From positions 1 through 21,391 of the IMG/VR virus record IMGVR_UViG_2778261068_000006: 21,391 nucleotides of DNA. The stretch is one strand, 5' to 3'. Below the pieces are notes generated by a model. That model made no database searches and was not told the origin of the DNA. It saw only the letters and a program-made list of their open reading frames with translations. This DNA comes from a virus. Lineage: Duplodnaviria; Heunggongvirae; Uroviricota; Caudoviricetes. Positions 1,307-16,306 of this stretch are shown here, in pieces. The position numbers were made by a program, and so were the translations under genes. The first letter of the stretch is position 1. Every line of letters begins with the position of its first letter.

Positions 1307-3787
1307 TTAAAAATCAACCGGATTCGGGATCAGTTTTTGCCAGATTGCTGAAACGTATTTTGCCTGGTGACGGGCGTCATCCAGTGCATTGTGGCGAACG
1401 CCTTCGAATGGAATAACGGTTCCAGCATCAAAGTCGATTGTTTTTCCCAGCTCAACGATTGTGCGTACATCGCGATCGTTGTGGTAGCGCCACGGGCAGG
1501 GGATGTCCAGACGTTCGTATGAGGTGCGCAAAATTGCGTTATCGAAAGTTGCACCATTACCCCATACCTGAACGAATTTTTCATCTGAGTATTCGTTGAT
1601 GAACTCCCGAAACCGCGAAAGGGCATCCTTCAGTTTTACCTGGTCTGTTAAAATGGCAGCTCTGGCTTCACTGGACTGCTTCAGCCACCATTTGATGGTT
1701 CCACCGTCAGGAGCAGCCCCTGTATTCATTGCGTCAGTCAGACTGATAACGATATAAAATACTGGCCCGATTTCCCCTGTTTGTGGGTCGAAGAAAACCG
1801 CACCAATAACCACGATGGGCGCATTGGTGTTGGTTCCCATTGTTTCAAGGTCGATCATCAGGTGGTACCACACTCTGCTGGTGGATGTGATAACGTGATG
1901 ACCGTTCACCACAATTAAGGGATCTGCCGTCTCACCAGTTTCATTATCGCTGGCGTGGTCCTGAGCGCTGCCAGCATTCTCCTTGTGTGGATGTTCAGCG
2001 CCTTCCATTTCCTCCGGGTCATTTTCCTGAACTTCAACCTGATTCTCTTCATCGAATGTTTCCTGGTATGTTGCGTCGCCCATCACCGCGCCACAATCAG
2101 GGCAGTTGCCGCCACCGCTCTGACCGCAGGCGGTGCAGACTTTTTCCGGTTCCTGTTGCGCTACTGGCTCAGGTTGTTTCGTTTCTGGCTCGTTTTGTAA
2201 CGCATTTTGGCTGTTTTGTTCCGCTTTCTGGTCGTTCTGTTCCGATTCTTGCTGGTTCTGGTTTACAGAATCGCGGGTTTCAATCCCCTTCACCCATTTC
2301 GGATCATTCGGGTCGCTAATCCCTGCAACAAATTCTCCGCGAGAGGCAGCAAGCAACTTATCGGCGTCAGGCTGGCTGATATTGGCTGCCTGCATAATTT
2401 TGTTTACTTCGTCAGCGGTAACTTTTACCGGCTCTGGTTGTGCGGTCGTGTCAGATGCACCAGTATTTTGTTGTGAACCTGAGTACGTGCCGTTTTTACG
2501 GGCAAAATATTCTTCTTTCGTGATTTCAGTAGCCCCTGCAGCCAGCGCCTTATTCAGACCAGAAAGTTTGTTTGCACGACCATATTTTTCGCCATCCTTA
2601 TCGGTGAAGAGGAAGTAGAACGGCCCCTCACGCTCTACAGATGGTTCAGTTTCCAGCGCGCTTTCATTTTTTTGGGTATCAGATACTTCAGTTTCCACTG
2701 CATCAGTTTGTGCTGCTGACGGCTGGAGAATATCAGCAGTGCTCTGGTCTGTTTCTTCATCCTCAAACACGCCCTTTGTCGCCAGGTATTCAGTGATGTA
2801 TTTGTTCAGCGCCACGGGATCTTTGTGAATGTCGATCGGACGCTCACGGACAAGGCCAAAAATAGTCTGACGGTCGTAGCGAACGGCATCAGGTTGTTTG
2901 CGCATTGATGCGGAAATACGCTTCCAGTCTTCGCGATCTTTGTCGATAACCTCATTTTTTGCCCAGCGATGGATGCTGCCGTCAATGTTTCCGGCATCAA
3001 TATCACCAGGCCAGAAAGCGTAGGCCAGTTCTTCATCCAGTGTTTTCCATGTCTGCTTGTATTCGCGACGAATGACAGCAGTTACGGAGTCAGTTTTTCC
3101 TGCAGAGTTTTCAGTGCCTTGCCGGTTGACTCTGGCGCGGGCAAGATCGACGACGGAATTATATGCGCCACCTTCTTTGCGCTCCTTTTCCATGCGTTTT
3201 TTACGTTCGAGAAAATACGCCTGAACGTCGGGCCATTTGGCTGTTGGTTTTAAATCACGTCTGGCATCGTTGATGTACTCAATCTGACGCTCTGGATACA
3301 TGGCGTTAATTTCTCTGGTCCGGATAATTGCTTCAGCGAGGTGTCCATCAAAAGTCGTCATCTCGTCATCGCCGAGAAGCCCGCTTGCATTGATGACCAT
3401 ATCCACGGTGATGTTTTCATGTGTACCGAACCTGACAAGGACAGCAGCCCGCTTGTCTTCAGATAACTGATTAAAGTTAACAGTTTCTGTATCCGGTTCA
3501 GGGTCGACCGGAACAAAGGAAGCCGACTCCTCATTCCAGCGGTTTTCCTGCATATATTCGGAATCCCAGGAATCGAGAGCAGGGCGGGCCATGCCGGGTT
3601 TATCCTCGCAGACAAGAAATTTATAAGCACAGTCCTGAGCTTCCGGGTATTGTTCCAGAAATAACCAGCTAAATTTGGCTCTTGCCCGGCGTTCGTCGCC
3701 TGCTTCAATGGCAGTGGCCACAGGTTTGGCGCCTTCTGCTGTTGCCTGTTCGTCCGGAATGGCGGCGCAAATAAAGACTTTACTCAT
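1307..3787 (-). CDS. Large prophage exonuclease-like protein: C-terminal DnaQ-like DEDDh 3'-5' exonuclease domain, internal zinc ribbon, acidic Q/E/N-rich linker (resembles prophage 'exodeoxyribonuclease VIII-like' proteins)
   Basis: 826-aa ORF with SD (gagg) upstream; C-terminus has exonuclease motifs MIDLETMG (Exo I, D-x-E), WGNGATFDNAIL (Exo II), HNALDDARHQAKY (Exo III, H-x4-D); CTACGQSGGGNCPDCG zinc-ribbon motif; located in the lambda exo/bet position. Confidence 0.6.
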   Translation of the reverse strand: MSKVFICAAIPDEQATAEGAKPVATAIEAGDERRARAKFSWLFLEQYPEAQDCAYKFLVCEDKPGMARPALDSWDSEYMQENRWNEESASFVPVDPEPDTETVNFNQLSEDKRAAVLVRFGTHENITVDMVINASGLLGDDEMTTFDGHLAEAIIRTREINAMYPERQIEYINDARRDLKPTAKWPDVQAYFLERKKRMEKERKEGGAYNSVVDLARARVNRQGTENSAGKTDSVTAVIRREYKQTWKTLDEELAYAFWPGDIDAGNIDGSIHRWAKNEVIDKDREDWKRISASMRKQPDAVRYDRQTIFGLVRERPIDIHKDPVALNKYITEYLATKGVFEDEETDQSTADILQPSAAQTDAVETEVSDTQKNESALETEPSVEREGPFYFLFTDKDGEKYGRANKLSGLNKALAAGATEITKEEYFARKNGTYSGSQQNTGASDTTAQPEPVKVTADEVNKIMQAANISQPDADKLLAASRGEFVAGISDPNDPKWVKGIETRDSVNQNQQESEQNDQKAEQNSQNALQNEPETKQPEPVAQQEPEKVCTACGQSGGGNCPDCGAVMGDATYQETFDEENQVEVQENDPEEMEGAEHPHKENAGSAQDHASDNETGETADPLIVVNGHHVITSTSRVWYHLMIDLETMGTNTNAPIVVIGAVFFDPQTGEIGPVFYIVISLTDAMNTGAAPDGGTIKWWLKQSSEARAAILTDQVKLKDALSRFREFINEYSDEKFVQVWGNGATFDNAILRTSYERLDIPCPWRYHNDRDVRTIVELGKTIDFDAGTVIPFEGVRHNALDDARHQAKYVSAIWQKLIPNPVDF

Positions 3788-3879
3788 TTTGTTTTACCTC
3801 ATTACAGATTTAAGGGTGGACAAATCCCTGCCATTGCTGACATATAAAAATAAAACCGGATATTTATTATGGGGCTGTT

Positions 3880-4071
3880 TTAAAGGCCTGCCGGGATTTC
3901 GTTATTGTTCATGCGAATAATTTTGTCGACAGGATAACAGTTCCCGGGAATTTTTTGCTCTGCCGCGGCAGTCATGCATTCTTCCATTGAGTCATGTATG
4001 TCAATAACAAGATCAATCGGTTCACCAGAAACAAAAAAAACAGTCAGAACGAGTACAAATGCCGTATTCAT
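3880..4071 (-). CDS. ydfD: YdfD-like small membrane lysis protein (Qin prophage family)
   Basis: 63-aa product MNTAFVLVLTVFFVSGEPIDL...GNCYPVDKIIRMNNNEIPAGL matches remembered E. coli YdfD; ATGA start/stop overlap with dicB at 4068-4071. Confidence 0.7.
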   Translation of the reverse strand: MNTAFVLVLTVFFVSGEPIDLVIDIHDSMEECMTAAAEQKIPGNCYPVDKIIRMNNNEIPAGL

Positions 4072-4256
4072 TGCCTGCATCCTGTTTGCATCAGACGTAA
4101 ACGGGCCAGCATCGAAACAATGCATATTTTATTTAGCAGTTCCTGTTCGTGTTTTCTTTTATTAATGGCATCTTCAGTAAATATCTGATTGCTGATAGTG
4201 ACACCAATTTCAAAACAACCTTCAGACGTATTAACGTTTGGTAATAACGTTTCCAT
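4068..4256 (-). CDS. dicB: DicB cell-division inhibitor (MinC-activating)
   Basis: 62-aa product METLLPNVNTSEGCFEIGVTISNQIFTEDAINKRKHEQELLNKICIVSMLARLRLMQTGCRQ closely matches E. coli K-12 DicB; SD gagga upstream; the longer 97-aa ORF in the track is an in-frame upstream extension. Confidence 0.8.
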   Translation of the reverse strand: METLLPNVNTSEGCFEIGVTISNQIFTEDAINKRKHEQELLNKICIVSMLARLRLMQTGCRQ

Positions 4257-4423
4257 TATCGCGTCCTCAACAATGAATTTTGTGATGCGGTGCCTGGTGC
4301 CTCCAGGTGACGTTAACCAGTTAACAATTAACGCCGGATACAGAGAATCCACCCATAACACTGTTTTTAGCTTTAACTGTTCCGCGTGCGCTTAGCCGCA
4401 TTCACCGCATCACAAAATTCACT

Positions 4424-4481
4424 TTAAAAAGGGCGGACATCAGTTCATGGGCAAACAGATGCCGCCAAACGTCACCAGAAA
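4424..4481 (-). ncRNA. dicF: DicF small RNA (ftsZ-targeting sRNA of the Qin dicB operon) with 3' intrinsic terminator
   Basis: Minus-strand sequence TTTCTGGTGACGTTTGGCGGCATCTGTTTGCCCATGAACTGATGTCCGCCCTTTTT matches the K-12 DicF sequence as I remember it (UUUCUGGUGACGUUUGGCGGUAUCAGUUUU...GCCGCCCUUUUU) with an identical 5' seed and a GGCGG/CCGCC hairpin plus U-tract; lies upstream of dicB as in Qin. Confidence 0.7.
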
Positions 4482-4785
4482 ATTGATAACAGAGGGCGTT
4501 GCAGCGGGGTTGTCACTTAAGCGTATGGTCAACCTGACAACCCGGTGTCCTCAACGGGGAAGGAATAACCCCGCCATACTTACCGCCGCGCCATTTCGCG
4601 GAGTGCCACAACCGGAAGCGCACGGTCGACGAAAATTTAACGACAGGCTATCTATGAACCAGCTACCTCGCCGTGCGCTTTCGCGTTATGGTCTGACTTT
4701 TCAGGGAAATATCCTTTCAGTAAACTGTCAGTGCCGGATGCTCGCCCGTGTCCGGCGCACGCACTCTACCTCACCCGTGAATAAA

Positions 4786-5172
4786 TTAATGATTAATTGA
4801 TATTTTATAGGTGGATTCAACTTTCCCATCGGATGTGTGATGCTTTAAATCACAGGAATTAATACTGCTTGCTGTAAAGTGATTTTCAAGGGGGTCTATT
4901 CGAATCCCTTTCTTTTTCATTAACAGGCCAAATCCCTTATTAATGATGTCCATTAATTCCAGAAAGTATTTTTCATGTAAATCCTGGTTATCAGAGAGCT
5001 GCTTCTCTTTGTATAGCCCGATAAAGGCTCGGCGCACGTTACCGGATATATTATCGATGGTTTCTTTTTCTACGGTACTCAGGTCAAGAGTAGCCAATTG
5101 AGAACGAACTATATTCGCTGCCATTTCCTGGAATGGTATTGGTAAATCTTTAAATTCCATCGTCAACCTCAT
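4786..5172 (-). CDS. Hypothetical protein, YdfB/YdfC-like (dicB operon)
   Basis: 128-aa ORF (possible start at MEFKDL); region FQEMAANIVRSQLATLDLSTVEKETIDNISGNV resembles Qin ydfB/ydfC products; TGATG translational-coupling overlap with upstream ydfA-like ORF. Confidence 0.55.
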   Translation of the reverse strand: MRLTMEFKDLPIPFQEMAANIVRSQLATLDLSTVEKETIDNISGNVRRAFIGLYKEKQLSDNQDLHEKYFLELMDIINKGFGLLMKKKGIRIDPLENHFTASSINSCDLKHHTSDGKVESTYKISINH

Positions 5173-5324
5173 CAGTCAGTGTTTCTGGCTAACCAGCGAC
5201 GCGCGCCAGATTCGGTTTTAAGCGTTTTGCTTTTGGTATACGTCATTGCGGTGAACGTACTGTCCTGGTTTGGGAACACGCCGCACACCAGAGATTCGTT
5301 GTTGCCAAGATCGATAGTATCCAT
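5172..5324 (-). CDS. ydfA: YdfA-like small protein, first gene of leftward early operon
   Basis: 50-aa product MDTIDLGNNESLVCGVFPNQDSTFTAMTYTKSKTLKTESGARRWLARNTD; SD gagg 7 nt upstream of ATG at 5324; the longer 68-aa ORF in the track has no RBS. Confidence 0.55.
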   Translation of the reverse strand: MDTIDLGNNESLVCGVFPNQDSTFTAMTYTKSKTLKTESGARRWLARNTD

Positions 5325-5378: not shown

Positions 5379-5492
5379 CGTGCGGTGTCTTGATGGAGAT
5401 TAATTTAGAATAACCTAACAAATGTGGCAAGTGTTTTTTGTTAGATTGGTCTAACAAAAAGAGTGAGGGAATCTAAGTATCTGAAAGGAGTG
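5379..5492. promoter_or_regulatory. Left operator/promoter region (OL/PL-like): two TTAG-N6-CTAA palindromes at 5405-5418 and 5441-5454
   Basis: Perfect 4+6+4 inverted repeats TTAGaataacCTAA and TTAGattggtCTAA, 36 bp apart, upstream of the leftward ydfA-dicF-dicB operon and downstream of the repressor gene. Confidence 0.5.
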
Positions 5493-5900
5493 TTATTTTA
5501 TTGATTTGTTTTTACGTGCTTTAAGCATTTCTTCGAAGAGTTTATTGAAATTCTCTACTCTTGCGCGCATTTCAGACAGTAAGGCTTCCTGCTCGGAGGA
5601 GGGAAGAGCATCGAATAATTCGATCAATTCTTTGTGGCTGGGAGTTAACTCGGTTTCCACATGAAGTTCTTGTGCTGGCACTGGTGCCTTGTCTTCGTCA
5701 CCAAACATTAGCCATGTAGGCGAGCACTTCAGCGCATCAGCTAAAGCAAATAACCGCTTCCCGACCGGTTGGGTTTCGTCTCTTTCCCATTGTGAAATTG
5801 TGACGTGAGCTACCCCAGCGAGGCGTGCAGCTTCTCGTTGTGTTAGGCGTAATTCTTTTCGTCGTGCCAGAACTCGCTGGCCTAGGGTTCTTGTATCCAT
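5493..5900 (-). CDS. dicA: Prophage repressor, HTH XRE family (DicA-like, cI functional analogue)
   Basis: 135-aa product; QREAARLAGVAHVTISQWERDETQP HTH; C-terminal ...CSPTWLMFGDEDK...EMRARVENFNKLFEEMLKAR matches remembered DicA (135 aa); divergent from dicC. Confidence 0.85.
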   Translation of the reverse strand: MDTRTLGQRVLARRKELRLTQREAARLAGVAHVTISQWERDETQPVGKRLFALADALKCSPTWLMFGDEDKAPVPAQELHVETELTPSHKELIELFDALPSSEQEALLSEMRARVENFNKLFEEMLKARKNKSIK

Positions 5901-5980
5901 AGTTAGGTAATTCTAATTTTTCTTGACTTAGGTATCCCGTGCACATTACTGTTAGGAATATCTAACAAGAGGGGGTTTTG
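5901..5980. promoter_or_regulatory. Immunity switch region (OR-like): two TTAG-N6-CTAA palindromes at 5903-5916 and 5952-5965 plus divergent promoters
   Basis: TTAGgtaattCTAA abuts the dicA start codon; TTAGgaatatCTAA lies 16 nt upstream of the dicC ATG; TTGACT -35-like hexamer at 5923-5928. Confidence 0.5.
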
Positions 5981-6208
5981 ATGCTTAAAGTTGACGCAAT
6001 TACTTTTTTTGGCAGCAAAACAAAACTTGCCAATGCCGCAGGAGTGAAACTGGCAAGTGTTGCTGCATGGGGGGAACTGGTTCCTGAAGGTCGCGCGATG
6101 CGCCTGCAAGAGGCATCCGGCGGGGAACTTCAGTACGACCCCAAAGTTTATGACGAATATCGTAAGGCAAAGCGGGCGGGGCGGTTGAACAATGAAAATC
6201 ACCCCTGA
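5981..6208 (+). CDS. dicC: Cro-like regulator DicC
   Basis: 75-aa product MLKVDAITFFGSKTKLANAAGVKLASVAAWGELVPEGRAMRLQEASGGELQYDPKVYDEYRKAKRAGRLNNENHP matches remembered DicC; SD gaggggg upstream; the track ORF starts 3 nt earlier at TTG. Confidence 0.8.
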   Translation: MLKVDAITFFGSKTKLANAAGVKLASVAAWGELVPEGRAMRLQEASGGELQYDPKVYDEYRKAKRAGRLNNENHP

Positions 6209-6713
6209 ACAGGTTTGTGAGGCTCTGGATGCCTGGGTATGCCGACCAGGAATGACACAGGAGCAGGCGACGATATTAATCACGGAAGCATTCTGGGCTC
6301 TGAAAGAACGCCCGAACATCGATGTTCAACGCGTCACGTTTGATGATGGCGCGGTTGATCAACGGGCGCTGGGCGTCAACCGGGTGAAGATATTCGAACG
6401 CTGGAAAGCTATCGACACCAGGGATAAGCGGGAAAAATTCACGGCGCTGATTCCGGCAATTATGGAGGCTATCCGGATCAGCGATTTCAGGTTGTATTGT
6501 GAAATTACTGACGGAAAAAGCATTACGTACATGATCGCCGGGTTAAACAAAGAATATGGCGATGTGGTGGAGTCCGGTCTGCTTTTGGCAGATCCTGCTG
6601 TTGTGGAGCGTGAGACTGACGAGCTTATAGAAAAAGCTATTGCTTTCAAGCATGCGTATCGTCAGCAATATCAACAAAAAGCCGGATGGAATTATGAGTC
6701 TTCTTTTTGCTGA
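6192..6713 (+). CDS. ydaT: YdaT-like protein (CII-like regulator/toxin family of Rac/CP-933P immunity regions)
   Basis: 173-aa ORF immediately after the cro-like gene; motif REKFTALIPAIMEAI resembles YdaT REKIQKLIPAILAIL; synteny repressor-cro-ydaT. Confidence 0.55.
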   Translation: MKITPEQVCEALDAWVCRPGMTQEQATILITEAFWALKERPNIDVQRVTFDDGAVDQRALGVNRVKIFERWKAIDTRDKREKFTALIPAIMEAIRISDFRLYCEITDGKSITYMIAGLNKEYGDVVESGLLLADPAVVERETDELIEKAIAFKHAYRQQYQQKAGWNYESSFC

Positions 6714-7659
6714 ACGCCCACTGGTTATTAACACGCAGCTGGCGATGAAAATTGGCCTGAATGAAGCCATTGTACTGCAGCAGCTGCATTACTGGTTGAG
6801 AGATACTAATTCCGGCATGGAATGTAACGGGGTTCGCTGGATTTATAACACAACAGAACAATGGCTGGAACAGTTCCCGTTCTGGTCAGAGTCAACGTTA
6901 AAACGCGCATTTGCAAGTCTGAAAACGCTGGGGCTTTTGCGTTGCGAAAAGCTCAACAAATCAAAGCGTGACATGACTAATTTTTACACGATTAATTACG
7001 AGAGTGAGCTTTTAGATGGTGGCAAAGTGAGCGAATCCATCAGGTCAAAATGCGCCGCTCCATCAGGTCAAAATGACACGATGGAAGAGGTCAAAATGGC
7101 ACGCTCCATTGGTTCAAAACGACCCAATGTCATCGGGTCAAAATGGCCTGATGATCTTACAGAGAATACAACAGAGATTACTACAGAGAATAAAAACACT
7201 TCTCGTCCGGAAGCTTCGCAACCGGACTCGCAGACGGCTGAACAGGATTTTTTAACCCGACACCCTGACGCGGTTGTGTTCAGTGCGAAAAAACGCCAGT
7301 GGGGAAGTCAGGAAGATTTGGCGTGCGCACAGTGGATCTGGGGACGAATCGTGAGTCTTTACGAGCAGGCTGCCAGCGATGATGGCGAGATCACGCGACC
7401 GAAAGAACCAAACTGGACCGCATGGGCCAATGATGTGCGCACAATGCGGATGCTGGATGGCAGAACTCACAGACAAATTTGCGAAATGTTTGGTCGGGTA
7501 CAGCGGGATCCATTCTGGGTAAAAAACGTCATGAGCCCGTCAAAGCTTCGTGAAAAATGGGATGAGCTGGTTATTCGTCTGGGGCGTCCGCCTGTACAGC
7601 GTTGTGTGAATCATATTTCTGAACCGGATACCGAAATTCCCCCAGGGTTCAGGGGGTAA
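6694..7659 (+). CDS. Replication initiation protein: N-terminal phage replisome-organiser-like DNA-binding domain, C-terminal DnaT (primosomal protein I)-like domain
   Basis: Start ATG 6694 preferred (MSLLFAERPL; the track ORF begins at 6640); C-terminus ...VNHISEPDTEIPPGFRG matches the E. coli DnaT C-terminus (...NTVSEPDSQIPPGFRG); iteron array lies inside the gene. Confidence 0.7.
   Translation: MSLLFAERPLVINTQLAMKIGLNEAIVLQQLHYWLRDTNSGMECNGVRWIYNTTEQWLEQFPFWSESTLKRAFASLKTLGLLRCEKLNKSKRDMTNFYTINYESELLDGGKVSESIRSKCAAPSGQNDTMEEVKMARSIGSKRPNVIGSKWPDDLTENTTEITTENKNTSRPEASQPDSQTAEQDFLTRHPDAVVFSAKKRQWGSQEDLACAQWIWGRIVSLYEQAASDDGEITRPKEPNWTAWANDVRTMRMLDGRTHRQICEMFGRVQRDPFWVKNVMSPSKLREKWDELVIRLGRPPVQRCVNHISEPDTEIPPGFRG
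7036..7145. repeat. Iteron array, probable phage origin of replication: five copies of GGTCAAAATG-like repeat at about 23-bp spacing
   Basis: Copies at 7043-7052, 7066-7075, 7089-7098 (ggtcaaaatg), 7111-7121 (ggttcaaaacg), 7136-7145 (gggtcaaaatg); first two share tccatcaggtcaaaatg; followed by A-rich stretch 7150-7200; embedded in initiator gene as for lambda ori in O. Confidence 0.65.
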
Positions 7660-7699
7660 GTGTTTATTTCGGGTCATGAGGTAATTTTCAGGAGGGCTT

Positions 7700-8122
7700 G
7701 TGGCAAAAGTATTTACACAAGAAGAGCGAGAAAAAATTAAAGGGCAGGTGGTGGAACTCGTGCGCCAGAGCGGTCGAGAGACGTTACGGCAACTGGAAGC
7801 TAAAACAGGTGCGACAAGATATCTGATGAGTGTTCTCGCCAGAGAGCTGGTTGCCAGTGGCGATGTATACAACTCCGGCTACGGGTTATTCCCGTCTGAA
7901 CAGGCGCGTAAGGACTGGCAAAACGCCCGCAAAAAACTCTCGAGGGCAAAGGTGAAGAAACCTGCTGTGGTTGATCTGGACCTTATCTGGTCATTTCCTG
8001 ACGGAGAAATACGTCGCTACGACAGTCGTCTAAACATAATCTGTAGCGAGTGCCGTAAGAGAGAAGTGATGAAGCGTGTACTGATGTTTTATCGAGGAAA
8101 TATCCAGAAATTTGTTCGGTAA
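7700..8122 (+). CDS. Hypothetical protein (possible HTH; CxxC near C-terminus)
   Basis: 140-aa ORF, GTG start with strong SD aggagg at 7691-7696; no recognisable family. Confidence 0.55.
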   Translation: MAKVFTQEEREKIKGQVVELVRQSGRETLRQLEAKTGATRYLMSVLARELVASGDVYNSGYGLFPSEQARKDWQNARKKLSRAKVKKPAVVDLDLIWSFPDGEIRRYDSRLNIICSECRKREVMKRVLMFYRGNIQKFVR

Positions 8123-8532: not shown

Positions 8533-8898
8533 GGCTATTTCATTATATGTTATCTGTGCTGGAGTAATAAGTTTACGGTATTAAGAAGCATTTTAACGAA
8601 ACAATCAACTGACTTATCAGTAAAGATAGCATTGTAATGCGATCTGATTGGTATCATCAGGACGCTTGTTCAAAAAAGGAGCATTAGTTGATCTTGAAAT
8701 TTTGCTCAAAATATCTAGCCTCTTGTTTAACTGCCAACTTTTGGGGGCAGTACACTCTGATGCTACACTCCTTGCAAGTTTCATTACCCCGACGTAAACA
8801 TTTATGACAGTTGCTGATTTCAAACGTCCTAAGTTGGAGCTCCCAAACGGGGCAAACAAACTACTATTACACTCTTGTTGTGCACCATGTTCCGGTGA

Positions 8899-9387
8899 AG
8901 TGATGGAGACTCTTCAGGCCTCAGGAATCGAGAACAACACGGTGTAGCGTTTATCGATGCTGATTACGACACTGACAACTGGTTTGAGCGAGCCAAAGGA
9001 ATGGAATGGGAGACCGAACGTGGGAGGCGTTGTACTATGTGTTTTGACATGCGTTTTGAGCGGACAGCGCTGTACGCCGCTGAAAATGGTTTCAGTGTGA
9101 TCAGCAGTTCACTGGGCATTTCACGCTGGAAAAATATGCAGCAGGTTAACGACTGCGGACGGCGAGCTGTCGCACATTATCCGGGAATTGTGTACTGGGA
9201 TTATAACTGGCGCAAGCAGGGGGGCTTGTCCCGCATGATTGAAATCAGCAAACGCGAACAATTCTATCAGCAGGAATATTGTGGCTGTGTGCATTCTCTG
9301 CGCGATACCAATCTACACCGCAAATCTCAGGGACGCCCTCTTATCAAAATTGGTCAACTCCACTACGGTAAAGAAGAGAAGGAGTGA
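8899..9387 (+). pseudogene. Probable 5'-truncated gene fragment encoding a Cys-rich protein (CxxC ... CGC motifs); family uncertain (possibly DUF208/QueH-like, unverified)
   Basis: Open frame runs from 8899 to stop at 9387 but the first start codon is ATG 9001; upstream in-frame sequence ([20 protein letters not shown]) looks coding yet has no start; abrupt AT-rich junction at about 8880. Confidence 0.4.
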
Positions 9388-9580
9388 TTTTATGGATCAC
9401 CTTTCTGATTGATTTCATATTGGCGAGGTTACGGGAGTTAAGTAGAATTGCTGCGGGTGCTTGAGGCTATCTGTCTCAGGCATGAATGCCAAAAGGCAGA
9501 TAGAGAAAAGCCCCAGTTAACATTACGCGTCCTGCAAGACGCTTAACATTAATCTGAGGCTCAATCTATGAACGGCAAAT

Positions 9581-10654
9581 CTAGGTTAGCCTCTTACGTG
9601 CCGAAAGGCAAGGAGTTGTATGGGTCCACCACATATTGCAATTTTTGTTCTCTCTTAAAATATATTCCACGGGTGTCATTAGCGCGAGCGCCTTATGGGG
9701 CCTTTTGCTGTTATACAGCACCAGATATTCCGCCAGCTTCTGATTAAATAGCGCCAGATCTTCAAAGAGTAAAATCTCATTAAATTCAATAAACTGCTCT
9801 CTTAACGTCCGGTTAAAACGTTCACAGATAGCGTTCATTTTTGGCGTGTAGGGATAGGTCCAGAGGTGTTTGATAGCGGCTTCCTGCAGCGTTTTGTCGA
9901 AGTTTCCCAGGAACTCTTTTCCGTTATCTGTGATTATCTGGCTGATACCGACCGGGAACAACCGGGCTGCGCGGCTGAAGAAGTGATTGACGATATCACT
10001 GTTGAGTGACGGCACAGCCAGCGCCAGCGCGTAATTGCTGCATTCGTCGATCATGGTGATGACATAGCGACGCAGTTCGCCCATTCTGAGCTCAATGGCG
10101 TCCATCCCAATGAGCTCACCTGTCTTTACCGGGCGATAGTGCTTTGGCCTGCGGGGTTTGGCAGACCGCTTTTTGACAAGCAGTGCCTTCCCCCGCGATC
10201 CCAGACGCACAGGTATCATCCGCATTTTATCATGTGCGGCAGCGATCATTCTGCCGATGGTGGAAACACTCGGACAGGCCAGATAGCGCTGTTCGCACCA
10301 GGGCTTCAGGCGAACAAAAATCTGCTCTTTACCGAGGTTCGGCAGCTCTGTCCTGAGGCGTCGAATCTCTTTCAGCACATCGGGATGCCAGTGTTTTTTT
10401 CGTCGCACCAGAGGTGCCTTACTGTGCGGGATTAGCCCCTCAGGTCCTTCCTTGTTCAGTAACTGACGCCACCAGTAAAGCGTGCGGCAGGACACGCCAA
10501 AGGCTTCAGAAGCCGCAGAAATACCGTGTTTATCCCAGAAGTGCAGAGCCTTCATTCTCATTGTTGCTGTATCAGCCATCACTGAAAGCCTCAACGCATA
10601 ATCGGCCGTTTGGTAGTACTTAGGATAGCCAACCATCAGATGCTGCATTTGCAT
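9581..10654 (-). CDS. DDE transposase (HTH + rve integrase-core), IS481-family-like
   Basis: 357-aa ORF; HTH GISAASEAFGVSCRTLYWWRQ; catalytic triad candidates D (MIDECS), D (ITDNGKEF), E (NAICERFNRT); likely true start at internal Met (MADTATMRMK, about 10579). Confidence 0.8.
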   Translation of the reverse strand: MQMQHLMVGYPKYYQTADYALRLSVMADTATMRMKALHFWDKHGISAASEAFGVSCRTLYWWRQLLNKEGPEGLIPHSKAPLVRRKKHWHPDVLKEIRRLRTELPNLGKEQIFVRLKPWCEQRYLACPSVSTIGRMIAAAHDKMRMIPVRLGSRGKALLVKKRSAKPRRPKHYRPVKTGELIGMDAIELRMGELRRYVITMIDECSNYALALAVPSLNSDIVNHFFSRAARLFPVGISQIITDNGKEFLGNFDKTLQEAAIKHLWTYPYTPKMNAICERFNRTLREQFIEFNEILLFEDLALFNQKLAEYLVLYNSKRPHKALALMTPVEYILRENKNCNMWWTHTTPCLSARKRLT

Positions 10655-10702
10655 AGTGCAATTTCCCCTTACTTATCCTGAGGTAATTGCAATATCTCTG
10701 TG
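9581..10702 (-). mobile_element. Insertion sequence, IS481-family-like (single-ORF DDE transposase); boundaries approximate
   Basis: Transposase ORF plus candidate imperfect terminal inverted repeats CACATATTGCAATT (9630-9643) and AATTGCAATATCTCTGTG (10685-10702); no clean target-site duplication found, so ends are uncertain. Confidence 0.6.
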
Positions 10703-10725
10703 AACTTACACAGGAGAAGCAGGCT

Positions 10726-10881
10726 ATGAAGCAGCAAAAGGCGATGTTAATCGCCCTGATCGTCATCTGTTTAACCGTCATAGTGACGGCACTGGTAACG
10801 AGGAAAGACCTCTGCGAGGTACGAATCCGAACCGGACAGACGGAGGTCGCTGTTTTCGTAGACTACGAATCTAGAGAGTAA
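10726..10881 (+). CDS. hokD: Hok/Gef-family type I toxin (HokD-like)
   Basis: 51-aa product MKQQKAMLIALIVICLTVIVTALVTRKDLCEVRIRTGQTEVAVFVDYESRE matches the Hok family (single TM, conserved LCE.R..G..EVAA/VF); SD aggag at 10712-10716. Confidence 0.85.
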   Translation: MKQQKAMLIALIVICLTVIVTALVTRKDLCEVRIRTGQTEVAVFVDYESRE

Positions 10882-10950
10882 GAGTGACCAGGCGGGAGAG
10901 TAATCTCCCGCCACCTCTGATATGTCAGGCATCCTCAATGCACCCGCACT

Positions 10951-10976
10951 TAACCCGCTTCGGCGGGTTTTTTGTT
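10951..10976 (+). terminator. Rho-independent terminator downstream of hok
   Basis: aacccgc-ttcg-gcgggtt hairpin followed by TTTTTTGTTGTTT; preceded by 9-bp-stem hairpin ggcgggaga/tctcccgcc at 10891-10912 (hok mRNA 3' fold-back-like). Confidence 0.8.
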
Positions 10977-11156
10977 GTTTATTTTTAGTGGGGTTGATCT
11001 TTTTGATTGCGTCATCACGTTTGCCTGTAAAGGCGTCGCGGATGTATTGAACAGATAATGAGCCAACATAGAATCAAAAATTCTTAAGTAGCGCGCAGGG
11101 AGAAGATGGATGGACCCCAAACAGGGGAGTGCTATTTATCTGGAAGGATTCTGTTG

Positions 11157-11417
11157 ATGAAAATCGAAGAATTACGTGAAATTTTTAGTGAAGATGGCCT
11201 CTATACTGTGCGCGTTGAGAATGGCGCTATTGTCAGCCACTGCCGTATTAAATGTTTACAGTCTCAACAAAGGAAGAGTGGAGCTGCGTTAATTCATTTG
11301 GTGGATGGGCTTGTGACGGATGGTTTTATTTTGCGTGCAAATGAATTTGTCACATCGTTGTCGTCTCTGAAAGAAGCTGGGATTAAGGCTGGTTTTTCTG
11401 CTTTTGAAGATGAGTGA
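11157..11417 (+). CDS. Hypothetical protein (Rem-like position in Qin-type prophages)
   Basis: 86-aa ORF from ATG 11157 with SD ggaagga 9 nt upstream; the track ORF starts earlier at 11106. Confidence 0.5.
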   Translation: MKIEELREIFSEDGLYTVRVENGAIVSHCRIKCLQSQQRKSGAALIHLVDGLVTDGFILRANEFVTSLSSLKEAGIKAGFSAFEDE

Positions 11418-11483
11418 ATTCATCTACAATTCAGCGCAGGGCTGAACCCCTGTTGAGTAACACTGTGCCACCGGAGAAAGCCG

Positions 11484-11762
11484 ATGGCGCAAAATTCCAG
11501 ATCACACAATTCTGATAATCTCGCTGTCTTTGCCAGCAGGCACGGGCGGCATTCGCACGCATTCAAATCTGACTGGTTCCAGCATGATCCATGCACTGAA
11601 GAACAGGCAGAGTGGCTAATTCAGAACTACCGCAGACGTGGGTATGAGTTCAGGAAAGCCCTCAGCCTCGATTATCGTCTCTGGATAATCTACGTCAGAC
11701 TCCCTTATTCCGAACGCCCACCGCGTCCGTCCCGCACATTCCAGCAACGCATCTGGAGGTAA
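11484..11762 (+). CDS. Hypothetical protein
   Basis: 92-aa ORF with SD ggag upstream; basic, GC-rich; tightly packed before DUF968 gene. Confidence 0.45.
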   Translation: MAQNSRSHNSDNLAVFASRHGRHSHAFKSDWFQHDPCTEEQAEWLIQNYRRRGYEFRKALSLDYRLWIIYVRLPYSERPPRPSRTFQQRIWR

Positions 11763-11763
11763 C

Positions 11764-12819
11764 GTGCGGGTATTACTTCGACCTGTTCCCGTACCGGAAC
11801 TTGGGCTGGTGGTGCTAAAGCCGGGGCGTGAATCTATGCCGGTATTTCACAATCCCCGGGTGCTGGTGGAGCCGGAACCAAAAATCATGCGCAGTCTGCC
11901 GTCCGGAGTCGTTCCTGCCGTTCGCCAGCCGCTGGCGGAGGATAAATCATTACTGCCATTTTTCAGCGATGAGCGGGTGATTCGTGCTGCTGGCGGCGCT
12001 GGTGCACTGTCTGACTGGCTGTTGCGCCATATTAAATCCTGCCAGTGGCCACACGGCGATTATCATCACAGCGAAACCGTCATTCACCGTTATGGTACCG
12101 GCGCCATGGTGTTGTGCTGGCACTGCGACAACCAGCTGCGTGACCAGACATCCGAATCACTCGGGCAACTTGCTCATCAAAACTTGTCAGCATGGATGAT
12201 TGACGTCATCCGTCACGCAATGAATGGCACACAGGAGCGGGAATTATCGCTGGCTGAATTATCCTGGTGGGCGGTCTGCAATCAGGTAGCGGACGCGCTA
12301 CCGGAGGCAGTATTACGTCGTTCTCTGGGGTTACGTGCGGAAAAAATCCACTCGGTATATCGCGAAAGCGACATCGTACCGGGAGAGCAGACCGCCACCA
12401 GCATACTGAAGCAGCGCACAAAAAATCTTGCGCCGCTGCCTCACGCCCACCAGCAAAACCCGCCACAGGAAAAGACGGTGGTCAGCATTGCCGTTGATCC
12501 GGAGTCACCGGCTCAGTATCTCCAGCGCCAGAAACCACAACGGGAAGAGATGCCTGTATACACGCGCTGGGTAAAAACGCAGAAATGCATGACGTGCGGT
12601 AATCAGGCAGATGATCCGCATCACATCATTGGTCATGGACTGGGAGGAATGGGAACAAAGGCTGATGATTTGTTTGTTATTCCGCTGTGCCGTAAATGTC
12701 ATAACGAACTGCACGCCGGGGTAAAAGATTTTGAAGAAAAACACGGCAGCCAGCTGTTGTTGCTGATTCGTTTTTTAATGCACGCGAGAAATTCGGGTGT
12801 CCTGAAGTGGAAAGCATGA
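11764..12819 (+). CDS. DUF968-family protein (YdfU-like) with C-terminal Cys/His zinc-binding motif
   Basis: 351-aa ORF (GTG start); C-terminus CMTCGNQADDPHHIIGHGLGG...IPLCRKCHNELH; immediately followed by rusA and Q, as ydfU precedes quuQ in Qin. Confidence 0.7.
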   Translation: MRVLLRPVPVPELGLVVLKPGRESMPVFHNPRVLVEPEPKIMRSLPSGVVPAVRQPLAEDKSLLPFFSDERVIRAAGGAGALSDWLLRHIKSCQWPHGDYHHSETVIHRYGTGAMVLCWHCDNQLRDQTSESLGQLAHQNLSAWMIDVIRHAMNGTQERELSLAELSWWAVCNQVADALPEAVLRRSLGLRAEKIHSVYRESDIVPGEQTATSILKQRTKNLAPLPHAHQQNPPQEKTVVSIAVDPESPAQYLQRQKPQREEMPVYTRWVKTQKCMTCGNQADDPHHIIGHGLGGMGTKADDLFVIPLCRKCHNELHAGVKDFEEKHGSQLLLLIRFLMHARNSGVLKWKA

Positions 12820-13185
12820 ATGACTGAACGCATAGAATTTGCTTTGCCTTACCCGCCGACGGTGAATACCTACTGGCGACGTCATGGCAATACGTATTTC
12901 ATCTCGGAGGCGGGAAAGCGTTATCGCCGTGATGTGGCGCTAATTGTTCGCCAGCAGCGGCTGAAATTAAACCTGTCCGGAAGGCTGGCGATAAAGATTA
13001 TTGCAGAGCCACCGGATAAGCGCCGTCGTGACCTGGACAATATCCTGAAAGCACCACTGGATGCGCTGACGCATGCCGGACTACTCATCGACGACGAGCA
13101 GTTTGATGAAATCAATATTGTGCGCGGTCAGCTCGTTCCTGGTGGGCGGCTGGGGATAAAAATCACAGAACTGGAGTGCGCATGA
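12820..13185 (+). CDS. rusA: RusA Holliday-junction resolvase
   Basis: 121-aa product; PYPPTVNTYWRRH, PDKRRRDLDNILKAPLDALT and GGRLGIKITELE align to E. coli RusA (PWPPSNNRYYRH..., [31 protein letters not shown]). Confidence 0.9.
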   Translation: MTERIEFALPYPPTVNTYWRRHGNTYFISEAGKRYRRDVALIVRQQRLKLNLSGRLAIKIIAEPPDKRRRDLDNILKAPLDALTHAGLLIDDEQFDEINIVRGQLVPGGRLGIKITELECA

Positions 13186-13871
13186 ATAACCAGTATTTAC
13201 AGTTTGTGCGTGAGCAGCTCATTGTCGCTACCGCTGATTTGAGTGGGGCAACAAAAGGTCAGCTTGAAGCCTGGCAAGAGAATGCCATGTTCGATACAGG
13301 GCGTTACAGGCGAAAAAAAATCCGGTACCGCGATGAAGTGACTGGAAAAATGATAACGCGGGATAATCCACCAATCCCGGGGAAGCAATCGCTGGCGAAG
13401 GGGACGTCAATTCCTCTGGTCAGTCCGGTTGAGTTTTCGACATCATCGTGGCGGCGGGCTGTTCTGTCTCTTGAAGAGCATCATAAAGCCTGGTTGTTGT
13501 GGTGTTACGGCGGAAACATTTGCTGGGAGCATCAGATCGCGATAACGCAGTGGGTGTGGAATGAATTTAAAACCCAGTCTGGTACCAGAAAAATTGCAGG
13601 AAAAACGCTGGAGCGTGTGAAGAAGTTGATATGGCTGGCGGCACAGGATGTCAGAGGATGGGTTACCGGGAGCGAGGTCTACCAGCGGCAGGAGCTTGCC
13701 AGACTGTGTGGAGTTAAGCCAGACAACTGGAGCCATAATTATGCGAACTACTGGCGTGAGATGTGCGACATTTTTAAGAATCTCGATACAGAATCCTTGA
13801 TTTCCACCGTGAAAAAGAGAACGCAACAAAAAGCGATCTTTTCACGACGAGATATTGCAAAAGTCAATTAA
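13176..13871 (+). CDS. Late-gene antiterminator, Q-like (QuuQ-like)
   Basis: 231-aa ORF between rusA and a tR'-type terminator; alternative start ATG 13182 gives ATGA coupling with rusA stop; call is largely positional. Confidence 0.55.
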   Translation: MRMNNQYLQFVREQLIVATADLSGATKGQLEAWQENAMFDTGRYRRKKIRYRDEVTGKMITRDNPPIPGKQSLAKGTSIPLVSPVEFSTSSWRRAVLSLEEHHKAWLLWCYGGNICWEHQIAITQWVWNEFKTQSGTRKIAGKTLERVKKLIWLAAQDVRGWVTGSEVYQRQELARLCGVKPDNWSHNYANYWREMCDIFKNLDTESLISTVKKRTQQKAIFSRRDIAKVN

Positions 13872-13934
13872 ATCGCGTACATTTTGTGTAAATCTGATAT
13901 TTTGCCGATTTTGTATGCGATGGCAAAGTAAGCA

Positions 13935-13960
13935 AAACCCGCCGATAAGCGGGTTTTTTG
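13935..13960 (+). terminator. tR'-like intrinsic terminator downstream of Q (late promoter PR'/qut expected at 13850-13934)
   Basis: aaacccgc-cgataa-gcgggttt perfect 8-bp stem followed by TTTTTTG; candidate promoter TTGCAA (13855-13860), 17 bp, TACATT. Confidence 0.8.
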
Positions 13961-13967
13961 TATTACA

Positions 13968-14864
13968 ATGCATGCGTTTAATTACTTTTTGGACCATTGC
14001 AACATGAAATCAGATAAGGCAGAAAACTTAGAGAATCCACTCGAACGTAATGATTTTACAATTGATGACTTCCACCATGTTCTTAGGGAGTTTGATAAAG
14101 CTGTTTGTGAAGCCAATGCGGTAAGTCAGGGAGTAGGTGTGCGAATGGCTGAGGCTTATCAAGGTTGGTCAACATATATATTTGCACGAATTTGCATTCA
14201 TGCTTCGATTATGATTTCTAATGTTCCTAAGTCCAGATGGGCTAAGCGAGATTACGATTTCTGGGATTTTGCTTCTATAGCATCTCATGTCAGGGCGATC
14301 CTTGAAGCTGAACTTCTGTTTATGTATTTGTCTGAAGCACCAGATTCAGAAGAGGCTTGGTCAGCAAAGCTAAATGTTATGCACATGAATGATTGTGTAA
14401 AAAGGATAGAATTATTCACGCAAAGTGATAATACAGAAGCATTAGGGTTTTATAATGAGCAACAGAGTATAATTGCGGAAAGACTCAATAAAAACCCTGC
14501 TTTTTTATCACTTGATAGTGGTACTAGGAAACGTTGCTTGTCAGGCAAGGCTTTAACAATTCCTAATAGAGACGATTTATTGATTAAACTAGGGAAAGAC
14601 CCAAAATCGTTTAAAGTGATGTTTGATTTTCTATCGCATTACACACACATACTCCCTATGTCATATTACAAAATGGAACCGAATGGGAGAGGGACTGGTT
14701 GTTTTAACAAGTTCGATTTTGGATATATAATAATGGGTATGTTGCTATGTACTGAATCTTTGATTAAGTGTACTGAACGGTTGGTGGATATTTTCCCTGA
14801 TGTTAAACGGTTAAGAAAAGGAACTAAATCAAAATTTACATTGGGCCCTAAACCAACAAAATAA
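13968..14864 (+). CDS. Hypothetical protein, AT-rich late-region cargo gene in the Q-tR'-holin slot; function unknown
   Basis: 298-aa ORF (alternative start ATG 14004, MKSDKAENL...); clearly lower GC than flanking phage genes; no signal peptide or TM segment evident; no family recognised. Confidence 0.7.
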   Translation: MHAFNYFLDHCNMKSDKAENLENPLERNDFTIDDFHHVLREFDKAVCEANAVSQGVGVRMAEAYQGWSTYIFARICIHASIMISNVPKSRWAKRDYDFWDFASIASHVRAILEAELLFMYLSEAPDSEEAWSAKLNVMHMNDCVKRIELFTQSDNTEALGFYNEQQSIIAERLNKNPAFLSLDSGTRKRCLSGKALTIPNRDDLLIKLGKDPKSFKVMFDFLSHYTHILPMSYYKMEPNGRGTGCFNKFDFGYIIMGMLLCTESLIKCTERLVDIFPDVKRLRKGTKSKFTLGPKPTK

Positions 14865-15030
14865 AATTAGCTAGAGTTTCTCCACTTCGAAGGCTCCCAA
14901 TGGGGGCTTTTGCATTTCAGGAGCTGGAAATCACTTTCACTTCCCCTTTGGTATAAGGGGGTGAGTCTGAGCTCCATTCCTCTCCTTACATTTTTTTCTC
15001 AGAGAACCCACAGTCATAAGAGGTGGCTTA

Positions 15031-15417
15031 ATGTCCGATCCTATTTCCGGTACTGGGTTAGCCGGAGGAGTTCTAACGGGAGTTAGTATTTATGGCCTGT
15101 TTACAGGTACGGATTATGGTGTTGTATTTGGCGCATTTGCAGGAGCTGTTTTCTACATAGCGACAACTGCAGATCTGACGGCAACGCTCCGACTGGCATA
15201 TTTCATCGTGTCATATATCGCTGGGGTTTTGTGTTCTGGGTTAGTTGGTTCCAAACTGGCGAATTTGACCGGATACAGTGATAAACCTCTGGATGCTATT
15301 GGTGCCGTAATCGTCTCTGCTTTAGCCGTTAAAATCCTGACGTTTCTGAATAACCAGGGTATCGGTTCGCTGGTGGCGCTCATAACGCGCCGGGGAGGTT
15401 CAGGTGGTACAAAATGA
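15031..15417 (+). CDS. Holin (multi-TM small membrane protein)
   Basis: 128-aa ORF with SD gaggtgg; hydrophobic segments GVLTGVSIYGLF, FGAFAGAVFYIATT, AYFIVSYIAGVLCSGLVG, AIGAVIVSALAV; first gene of lysis cassette. Confidence 0.7.
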   Translation: MSDPISGTGLAGGVLTGVSIYGLFTGTDYGVVFGAFAGAVFYIATTADLTATLRLAYFIVSYIAGVLCSGLVGSKLANLTGYSDKPLDAIGAVIVSALAVKILTFLNNQGIGSLVALITRRGGSGGTK

Positions 15418-15685
15418 CCTATCGGCAACTTTTAATGCATTGCTTTGTGCTGGGGTAGTGTTAACCCTGATGTTTTACCGTCGCGGCGACTCGCGACATC
15501 GGCCGTGGATATCTCGTTTAGCGTGGCTGCTTACGGTCATGTACAGTGCCGTTCCGCTGGCGTATCTGTGCGGTATTTACCCGTACTCATCATGGGGCAC
15601 TATCGGGGCCAACATTATTTTCCTCTCTGTGCTGGTAGCCGTCAGAGGCAACGTGGCACGTCTGGTTGATCATCTGAGGCGCTAA
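15404..15685 (+). CDS. Small membrane protein of lysis cassette (holin/antiholin-like)
   Basis: 93-aa ORF, GTG start with SD ggggagg; overlaps holin stop by 14 nt and endolysin start by 1 nt; two to three predicted TM helices. Confidence 0.5.
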   Translation: MVQNDLSATFNALLCAGVVLTLMFYRRGDSRHRPWISRLAWLLTVMYSAVPLAYLCGIYPYSSWGTIGANIIFLSVLVAVRGNVARLVDHLRR

Positions 15686-16299
15686 TGAACCAATCACAAT
15701 TTCAGCAGGCGGCTGGTATCAGCGCCGGGCTTTCTGCGCGCTGGTTTCCGCACATTGATGCGGCATTGAAAGAGTTTGAAATCACAGCAGTTAACGATCA
15801 GGCCATGTTCATTGCACAAGTTGGGCACGAATCGGCCGGTTTTACCTCGCTGGTGGAGAGCTTTAACTATTCGGTAGAGGGTCTGAAGAAAACCTTTGGT
15901 AAACGCCTGACTCCGTATCAGTGTGAAATGTTGGGACGTATCGATGGTAGGCAGATAGCCCACCAGCAGCAAATAGCCAATTTGGTTTACGGTAACCGCC
16001 TGGGGAATAACAGCCAAGGGGATGGCTGGAAATATCGTGGTCGTGGCCTGCTTCAAATCACCGGCCGGGAGAACTACGCCAAATGCGGTACGGCGCTGAA
16101 GCTTGATCTAATCGGTACACCAGAGTTGCTGACGCAGGAGAAGCATGCTGCCCGTTCTGCTGCTTGGTTTTTCACGTTACGTGGTTGTCTCCTTTACTCG
16201 GGAGAGCTGGAGCGCGTCACGCAGATTATTAATGGCGGGCAGAACGGCATTAAAGACCGTCGTGAACGTTACGCCAAAGCTAAAGCCGCACTGGTGTGA
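15685..16299 (+). CDS. Endolysin, glycoside hydrolase family 19 (chitinase-like lysozyme)
   Basis: 204-aa product with GH19 motifs FIAQVGHESAGF and YRGRGLLQITGRENY. Confidence 0.8.
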   Translation: MNQSQFQQAAGISAGLSARWFPHIDAALKEFEITAVNDQAMFIAQVGHESAGFTSLVESFNYSVEGLKKTFGKRLTPYQCEMLGRIDGRQIAHQQQIANLVYGNRLGNNSQGDGWKYRGRGLLQITGRENYAKCGTALKLDLIGTPELLTQEKHAARSAAWFFTLRGCLLYSGELERVTQIINGGQNGIKDRRERYAKAKAALV

Positions 16300-16306
16300 G
16301 GTCACT

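Follow-up and report, generated by a model that had tools for sequence, protein, structure and literature searches.

The stretch of DNA analysed here as a whole, 21,391 nucleotides (nt) of the IMG/VR virus record IMGVR_UViG_2778261068_000006 and called the window further on, carries a dicBF-type region read on the minus strand from position 5900 down to 1. The region is quite probably the DicA-repressed early-left dicBF operon of a lambdoid Escherichia albertii prophage of the Qin/P22-immC type, with the small RNA (sRNA) DicF present as an allele, designated type 2, predicted to act without control of ftsZ and pykA. The module as such is a known system, DicF, DicB, and YdfD being well studied and intact phages with them being on record; what is of modest interest is the allele, which is widespread, unannotated, and predicted to have lost the ftsZ and pykA control. 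In work on DicF in pathogens "dicF copies" are counted as equivalent ftsZ repressors, and type 2 is missed by the standard covariance-model threshold. If the prediction is true, the arguments based on DicF copy number in enterohemorrhagic E. coli (EHEC) and E. albertii need revising, and the locus is a natural case of domain swapping in a phage sRNA.

The type 2 allele of DicF

Type 2 DicF occupies positions 4426–4481 of the minus strand; it is 56 nt long including the U-run, and consists of the canonical 5′ 20 nt, a 13-bp terminator hairpin, and UUUUU. Its nt 1–20 and its last 12 nt (the base of the stem and the U-run) are 100% identical to those of E. coli K-12 DicF, while the top of the hairpin, 25 nt at 4437–4461 of the same strand, i.e., the segment holding the anti-ftsZ and anti-pykA sequence in K-12, is replaced, with 12 of 27 alignment columns identical to K-12 (44%), 13 mismatches, and 2 gaps. 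The position is the orthologous one, with the conserved leader on one side and the dicB spacer on the other, the flanks being 97–100% identical (98.6% over the 209 nt upstream of DicF and 97% over the 168-nt spacer). The predicted fold comprises a 13-bp stem with a 6-nt loop, followed by UUUUU, and has an energy of −17.3 kcal/mol vs. −15.9 kcal/mol for K-12; the single-stranded 5′ seed UUUCUGGUGACGUUU, pairing with xylR, is kept. An earlier description of the window made from its letters alone (the sequence-only reading) had noted on the minus strand a DicF-like sequence with a conserved seed and terminator, which is correct, the 5′ 20 nt and the terminator base with the U-run being identical to K-12.

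The Rfam DicF covariance model (RF00039), proposed in that reading as a check, matches the element end to end at 4431–4480 (model positions 1–52) with E = 9e-8 under permissive thresholds, but its score of 43.5 bits lies under the gathering score of 48 bits, the K-12 DicF control reaching 76.7 bits. The low score is due to the local replacement of the hairpin top. At the curated Rfam thresholds no DicF match is obtained and sok is the sole hit in the window; the type 2 copies of EHEC and E. albertii likewise fall below the threshold, so that Rfam-based annotation passes over the allele in E. albertii and in about one in ten of the complete E. coli genome records. At the type 2 positions of the E. 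coli records inspected no feature is annotated, and RefSeq lists no non-coding RNA there.

The dicF position is bounded by flanks that do not depend on the allele (GCTGCAACGCCCTCTGTTATCA … AAAGTGAATTTTGTGATG), and a scan of 2.9 million IMG/VR contigs gave 21 stretches with a non-K-12 base at position 21. When the IMG/VR and other fetched loci are pooled, the type 2 sequence is identical in 21 of 22 copies, the remaining one being a single-base variant, and there are no intermediates. The identical sequence is carried by E. albertii NBRC 107761, EHEC 86-24, a pig isolate of E. coli, and 18 IMG/VR loci, while 587 complete E. coli genome records, including those of O157:H7 86-24 and O121 strains, match the 121-nt region with at least 99% identity. 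Type 2 is found behind differing upstream cassettes and in differing hosts; judging by these sequences, it is a discrete allele and not a product of gradual drift. No description of it was found in the literature, in a search which did not take in the EHEC paper on four dicF copies.

Predicted targets of type 2 DicF

The 3′ region of K-12 DicF represses ftsZ and pykA, and its 5′ end represses xylR; the 3′-region mutants DicF9 and DicF21 lose ftsZ control and toxicity and keep xylR control, while the 5′ mutant DicF3 still represses ftsZ (PMC5069750). In an accessibility-weighted interaction scan the sites recovered for K-12 DicF were the published ones, namely nt 32–53 with ftsZ −28 to −7, nt 26–43 with pykA −18 to +1, and nt 6–15 with xylR +9 to +20. 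In type 2, the ftsZ and pykA sites are gone and the xylR site is unchanged (−14.5 kcal/mol). The duplex with ftsZ amounts to −29.2 kcal/mol for K-12 DicF, a value reached by 3.6% of shuffles, and to −17.4 kcal/mol for type 2, a value reached by 82% of them. Of 5425 E. coli genomes, 5389 have an ftsZ leader of at least 99% identity, and in NZ_AP018488.1, a type 2 carrier, the leader is 100% identical. The statement that DicF represses ftsZ, extended to the window copy by the sequence-only reading, is not supported for this copy, since the required 3′ region is replaced and the complementarity is no better than that of shuffled sequences.

As the hairpin top is swapped as a block, type 2 DicF is predicted not to repress pykA, and it is fairly likely that it does not repress ftsZ either. 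Its predicted phenotype is that of the laboratory mutants DicF9 and DicF21, in which the 3′ region is altered and the 5′ seed intact, and repression of ftsZ (in DicF21 also of pykA) is lost and that of xylR kept (PMC5069750); the mutants, however, carry engineered changes of a few bases, whereas type 2 is a natural block replacement with a slightly stronger hairpin. Within the window, the search for targets of the new hairpin top brought out only a trivial antisense self-match.

A possible allelic series at the dicF position

Four classes of sequence are found at the dicF position: the canonical one, complementary to ftsZ and pykA, type 2, type 3, which is short and has a minimal hairpin, and the form of the Shiga toxin (Stx) phage 75/02, which has another seed. 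Type 3, of ca. 39 nt (TTTCTGGTGATTCGGCGGAAACGGATATCCGCCCTTTTT), lies between the same conserved flanks at 3785–3823 of the second dicB locus (L008) of E. albertii NBRC 107761; it draws no hit from the DicF covariance model at E ≤ 1, and 404 E. coli records match its 121-nt region with at least 99% identity. Neither of the dicB loci found in this E. albertii strain thus has a canonical dicF allele.

The form of phage 75/02, a Shigella Stx phage (NC_029120.1, 1489–1552 of locus L177), is situated upstream of kil and has a perfect 10-bp stem. It shares with type 2 the flanks (…GACAACCCCGCTGCAAC… and …AAAGTGAATTTT…) and much of the hairpin, with 31 of 37 positions identical and a common 3′ arm, GAUGUCCGCCC (between the canonical form and type 2 the figure is 29 of 39), and, as in the window, it is followed by an STnc100-like spacer and then by a division-inhibitor gene. 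It differs from type 2 in the 5′ seed (AUAUCCUC…), in scoring only 15.8 bits with the DicF model, and in having kil, not dicB, downstream. At most, this hints at a recombinant origin of type 2, with the canonical seed joined to a hairpin of the 75/02 lineage. A wider and still tentative idea is that the dicF position holds an allelic series, in which a near-invariant processing scaffold, its proposed parts being the leader stems, the 5′ cleavage loop, the terminator base, and the spacer stem, is combined with interchangeable target segments; type 2 would then be naturally retargeted and may have gained other targets.

Leader, spacer, and predicted processing

The 304-nt gap upstream of DicF (4482–4785) has no coding signature, its variable sites being spread as 30/29/28 over the codon positions. 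The sequence-only reading had pointed to ca. 300 bp free of open reading frames (ORFs) with a hairpin at 4732–4756, both of which are present, and had suggested a processed polycistronic precursor, an idea that fits, as long stems are conserved in the 98 unique sequences of relatives used for structure comparison and the 190-nt RNase III product known from K-12 would, by homology, begin within one of them, stem A. This stem, of 19 bp (4668–4690 paired with 4607–4629, minus strand), is found in the consensus fold of the 98 relatives and is predicted to be where RNase III cuts to give the long DicF species; 99.6% of its alignment cells are paired, vs. 28–39% with slid partners, and 35 of 43 non-consensus cells are still paired. 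A small hairpin of the consensus fold pairs 4484–4491 with 4470–4477, and the DicF 5′ end lies in the AU-rich loop of this hairpin.

The dicF–dicB spacer is also structured (4272–4423, minus strand), with a fold of −66.2 kcal/mol (z = −5.4 vs. shuffles) closed by the 19-bp stem C, 4404–4423 with 4272–4291, which is located just before the dicB ribosome-binding site; the spacer structure ends 15 nt from the dicB start codon. In stem C, 99.5% of cells are paired, and 88 of 98 non-consensus cells are still paired vs. 4 of 92 at a +1 slide. Stems A and C taken together are 99.5% paired vs. 27–57% when slid, with 81–90% of variant cells paired. In K-12, the dicBp transcript is cut by RNase III to give a 190-nt species and by RNase E to give the 53-nt DicF (bioRxiv 10.1101/2023.04.14.536235). 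By analogy, and from the difference between 190 and 53 nt, the 5′ end of the long species would fall near 4618, inside stem A, and the structured spacer is a probable RNase III substrate.

The Rfam family STnc100 (RF02076) matches the spacer end to end (window 4224–4433) with 39 bits, below its threshold of 47, and scores 31–33 bits on the spacers of the other alleles; the family appears to be the prophage dicF–dicB spacer, or dicB 5′ leader. In an EHEC transcriptome paper the STnc100 copies are numbered up to 11 in EDL933. The leader and spacer (4232–4690) are 97–99% identical to K-12 vs. 89% for dicB and 75% for ydfD (3880–4256), the non-coding part being the more conserved one, which is consistent with a dense constraint by RNA structure and processing or with a recent recombinational spread of the block.

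Two ORFs of this part were rejected as genes. Neither the 117-amino acid (aa) ORF on the plus strand (4447–4800) nor the 36-aa ORF on the minus strand (4513–4623) shows a codon-phase bias, and the former is open in only 58 of the 98 relatives and closed in 40. ORFs like it, antisense to DicF and the leader, are called "hypothetical protein" over DicF in RefSeq genomes and several phage records, and are probably annotation artefacts. The hairpin mentioned above lies just past the stop of the upstream gene, ORF124, and has a 6-bp GCCGGA/UCCGGC stem (4733–4738 with 4751–4756, minus strand) and a 12-nt loop. In ca. 75 of 98 relatives the loop varies and the stem does not, no compensatory change is seen, and the hairpin is absent from the minimum-energy fold of the window. 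It was rejected as a terminator, as no U-run follows and it is not in the terminator-scan list; it may be structural.

Operon layout and control region

The order on the minus strand is a DicA-like gene, the control region, YdfA, ORF124, the 304-nt gap, DicF, a 169-nt spacer, DicB, YdfD, an exonuclease, a DUF4224 gene, and an integrase. dicB (4068–4256) codes for a protein of 62 aa, matched by PF05358 over residues 1–62 of 62 (132.5 bits, cut-off 27), which is identical to K-12 DicB in 54 of 62 positions (87%) and to the E. albertii NBRC 107761 copy in all of them (100%). The ydfD homologue (DUF1482; 3880–4071) codes for 63 aa (PF07358, 80.9 bits, cut-off 25), 46 of which (73%) are identical to K-12 YdfD, and its start overlaps the dicB stop by 4 nt in the sequence ATGA. 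The two genes and their coupling are as the sequence-only reading had them, and the disabling mutations in dicB and ydfD which it had named as speaking against its view were not found, no frameshift or premature stop being seen in these or the neighbouring operon proteins on alignment to the K-12 proteins. The first gene of the operon is a ydfA homologue (DUF1391; 5172–5324) of 50 aa (PF07151, 93.3 bits; 43/51 identical to K-12 YdfA). The Pfam matches are decisive for assigning DicB, YdfD/DUF1482, and DUF1391, and by every protein as well as by synteny the locus is assigned to the Qin/dicBF class. K-12 DicB inhibits division in a MinC-dependent manner, and sequence identity suggests the same for the DicB of the window.

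Downstream of ydfD lies the gene of a full-length exonuclease of 826 aa (1307–3787, minus strand; phrog_2082, 1537 bits; Pfam Rv2179c-like domain), which shows a DNA match to the K-12 ydfE region and is the intact counterpart of the ydfE pseudogene. It is followed by a gene in the xis position (989–1240; Pfam DUF4224) and by that of a tyrosine integrase (1–1020; Pfam Phage_integrase), with which the leftward operon ends, both in the same order as in E. coli relatives.

A DicA-like helix-turn-helix repressor of 135 aa (Pfam HTH_3, 54.5 bits; 75/135 identical to K-12 DicA) is encoded at 5493–5900 of the minus strand, in the position and orientation of dicA in Qin. Divergent from it, at 5978–6208 of the plus strand, is the gene of a DicC/Cro-like regulator of 76 aa (Pfam P22_Cro, 50.3 bits; 62/76 identical to K-12 DicC), which together with a YdaT/CII-like gene lies opposite to the operon. 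A promoter scan indicated a sigma-70-like, dicBp-like promoter on the minus strand (−35 TTGCCA at 5430–5425, −10 TAAATT at 5407–5402), and repeat analysis two operator palindromes of the core TTAG-N8-CTAAC flanking or overlapping it (5405–5422 and 5437–5458) and two more copies of the motif between dicA and dicC (5902–5969). A Rem homologue of 86 aa, a candidate DicA antirepressor (11157–11417, plus strand; 71% identical to K-12 Rem, E = 4e-40), has its gene beside hokD, an arrangement found in Qin as well; PF27490 (Rem) is given in the precomputed annotation of the identical record, while the local Pfam copy yields no match. The divergent HTH_3 and P22_Cro genes, the four TTAG-N8-CTAAC sites as predicted binding sites, and Rem place the immunity region in the Qin/P22-immC type. 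In K-12, DicA represses dicBp and Rem relieves the repression (bioRxiv 10.1101/2023.04.14.536235); by analogy, the dicBp-like promoter would be under DicA-like operator control, and the same DicA/Rem circuit may operate in the prophage of the window.

The operon may be expressed as follows. Displacement of DicA from the four operators, by the prophage's own Rem homologue or by the DicA/DicC switch, would start transcription at the dicBp-like promoter near 5400, and the leftward transcript would comprise ydfA, ORF124, the 304-nt leader, DicF, the spacer, dicB, ydfD, the exonuclease gene, the xis-like gene, and int. RNase III would cut the long leader and spacer stems and RNase E the AU-rich loop at the DicF 5′ end, the two cleavages releasing DicF and separating it from the dicB–ydfD message. 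DicB would block division through MinC, and YdfD would add lysis or toxicity, as in K-12. Type 2 DicF would keep the xylR-type seed, the terminator, and the U-tail, and without its repression of ftsZ and pykA DicB would be left as the division inhibitor of the operon.

Comparison with related loci

In the Qin prophage of K-12 (ydfABC-dicF-dicB-ydfDE) the order and orientation are the same from dicC/dicA through ydfA, the leader, dicF, the spacer, dicB, ydfD, and the exonuclease to the integrase, with the high identity of the leader, the spacer, and DicF nt 1–20 given above. The two loci differ in that the ydfB/ydfC slot of the window holds the unrelated ORF124 and the DicF hairpin top is replaced; moreover, the exonuclease and integrase, intact in the window, are pseudogenes in Qin, and there is no IS2 in the window. 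DicA is only 55% identical to that of K-12, so the immunity specificity probably differs from that of Qin.

Complete phages, such as Tritos (OV696610.1), mEp460_ev081, PPompW, and Stx2a phages, with complete records of 44–90 kb, show the order CI/Cro, small ORFs, DicF, DicB, YdfD, exonuclease, and Tritos has both DicF and DicB annotated. The presence of the module in a complete phage, the novelty of which the sequence-only reading had implied, is thus already documented. These phages differ from the window in carrying canonical DicF, with ca. 91% identity to the 121-nt query, and type 2 was not found at full coverage in the phage-record collection. In EHEC and other E. coli (O157:H7 86-24, NZ_CP017251.1) the identical type 2 lies upstream of dicB-DUF1482-exonuclease-xis-int; these loci differ from the window in the host species and in the upstream genes, which are ydfC and a 135-aa paralogue of ORF124 in 86-24, and ydfA-ydfB-ydfC in the pig isolate DCE7.

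Prophage context

Positions 8646–21391 of the window are 100% identical to AP014856.1, a 4.6-Mb chromosome, and a contig of E. albertii NBRC 107761 matches the left 8 kb with 93.6% identity, while in E. coli the closest matches to the operon have only 87–91% identity. The window comprises genes for an integrase, a xis-like protein, an exonuclease, an O-like initiator, a Ren-like DUF977 protein, DUF968, RusA, and Q, and in its right part for two holins, a GH19 endolysin, an Rz-like spanin, HNH, TerS, TerL, and the start of a portal protein. In AP014856.1 the sequence continues with the portal, S78 protease, capsid, connector, tail tube, chaperone, 1075-aa tape measure, and minor tail genes. The linkage of the module to replication, lysis, and packaging genes, which had been proposed from the window sequence, is supported for a Qin-type early-left operon of a prophage intact as far as seen, and for the inspected ca. 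30 kb the expression "apparently complete prophage" is reasonable.

Alternative explanations

Several points weigh against the reading of the region as a DicA-repressed operon of an intact prophage whose DicF has lost ftsZ and pykA. The completeness of the prophage was judged on ca. 30 kb, with its right end outside this part. The relatives were gathered through exact matches to a word of DicF or its flanks, so that conservation close by is overstated, and most of the covariation supporting the stems affects one side only (G-C to G-U), with few pairs changed on both sides. The duplex test set the hairpin region against E. coli ftsZ −40 to +20 only, the E. albertii leader not being included, and the accessibility-weighted energies part the canonical ftsZ site from the weak 5′-end sites shared by both alleles by only ca. 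2 kcal/mol; the simple interaction model has therefore limited resolving power. Moreover, DicF can act via Hfq recruitment rather than direct occlusion, its mechanism on manX being non-canonical and Hfq-dependent (PMC5861419). On this basis, or via the shared 5′ region, type 2 might be equivalent to K-12 DicF and still repress ftsZ, since its 5′ 20 nt are identical and weak pairings are shared with the ftsZ Shine-Dalgarno region (nt 1–9, −5.1 kcal/mol) and with +15 to +26 (nt 4–15, −6.0 kcal/mol). Nevertheless, DicF9 and DicF21 keep the same 5′ pairings and yet fail on ftsZ, the 5′ mutant DicF3 still represses it, and the type 2 3′ region pairs with the ftsZ start region no better than shuffled sequences do, which makes such equivalence not very likely.

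That the DicF-like element no longer acts in trans and is kept only as an intrinsic terminator or a processing scaffold is quite improbable. The score under the Rfam threshold, the burial of most of the variable region in the 13-bp stem with its 6-nt loop, and the shorter type 3 alleles with a minimal hairpin holding the same position in other prophages would agree with this view, but the single-stranded 5′ seed is perfectly conserved, the U-tail is of the kind expected for Hfq binding, and the predicted xylR duplex is unchanged; the monomorphism of type 2 over many backgrounds also speaks against it, weakly, since the flanks are equally invariant. It is also unlikely that the prophage is cryptic like Qin, the operon being silent cargo outside any phage life cycle. 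An insertion sequence (IS) element of the IS481 family in the nin region, the location of the right end and attachment sites beyond the inspected part, and the lack of a separate P-like gene found by the O-like initiator could be taken in its favour. However, a frameshift or truncation was seen in none of the phage genes in the 21-kb window, the sole truncated-looking ORF being a QueH-like accessory gene; the exonuclease, a pseudogene in K-12, is full length, the IS481 element sits between sok and hok and not in an essential gene, the portal-to-tape-measure genes are intact in AP014856.1, and complete phage genomes carry the same module.

ORF124 and accessory genes

The gene between ydfA and the leader, ORF124 (4786–5160, minus strand), has no relation to ydfB or ydfC, although it had been taken for an unsplit 128-aa ydfB/C-like ORF. 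The best BLASTP match to YdfB/YdfC has E = 3.2, the DNA is only 39% identical to K-12 in this slot, with the flanks well aligned, the PHROG families differ (phrog_6937, 255 bits, for ORF124, phrog_2061 for YdfB, and phrog_1744 for YdfC), and in EHEC 86-24 ydfC and the ORF124 paralogue occur side by side. The length of 128 aa would require a start at 5172; the likely start is 5160, which gives 124 aa, the ATG there being preceded by GAGG and most full-length homologues having 124 aa. Its slot is a variable cassette, in which identity to the window drops to 0.23–0.49 (97 relatives). No Pfam family matches ORF124, the only matches being to PHROGs without an assigned function, and of the 227 homologues those that bear a name, which belong to species of Escherichia, namely E. 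coli, E. albertii, and E. marmotae, and in one case to Salmonella enterica, are all "hypothetical". An AlphaFold2 model built with 37 sequences (predicted local distance difference test score, pLDDT, of 61) shows a three-helix N-terminal domain and a disordered tail, and Foldseek gave no match to PDB below E = 3.

In the replication region (6640–8122) the O-like initiator (339 aa, TTG start) is directly followed by the Ren-like DUF977 gene, and no distinct helicase-loader (P-like) gene was recognised there beside the initiator; by comparison, in a related E. coli prophage, SLK172, this position is taken by a P gene and a separate DUF1627 gene. The QueH-like ORF (epoxyqueuosine reductase family; 9001–9387), located in the nin region by hok/sok, covers profile positions 76–174 of 175 only and looks N-terminally truncated or mis-started. 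The IS481-family transposase gene (9581–10654, minus strand), the sole insertion seen, lies between the sok/mok leader (Rfam sok, 105.8 bits, 9455–9622) and an intact hokD (10726–10881, Pfam HOK_GEF), and thus parts the toxin gene from the control region upstream of it; ca. 100 complete E. coli genome records show this arrangement too. Two further genes are likely cargo, a 298-aa ORF between Q and the holins (13968–14864), with a weak sub-threshold match to DUF5677, and the gene of a 179-aa YfbU-domain protein (16987–17526), situated between the lysis genes and those for packaging, on the opposite strand.

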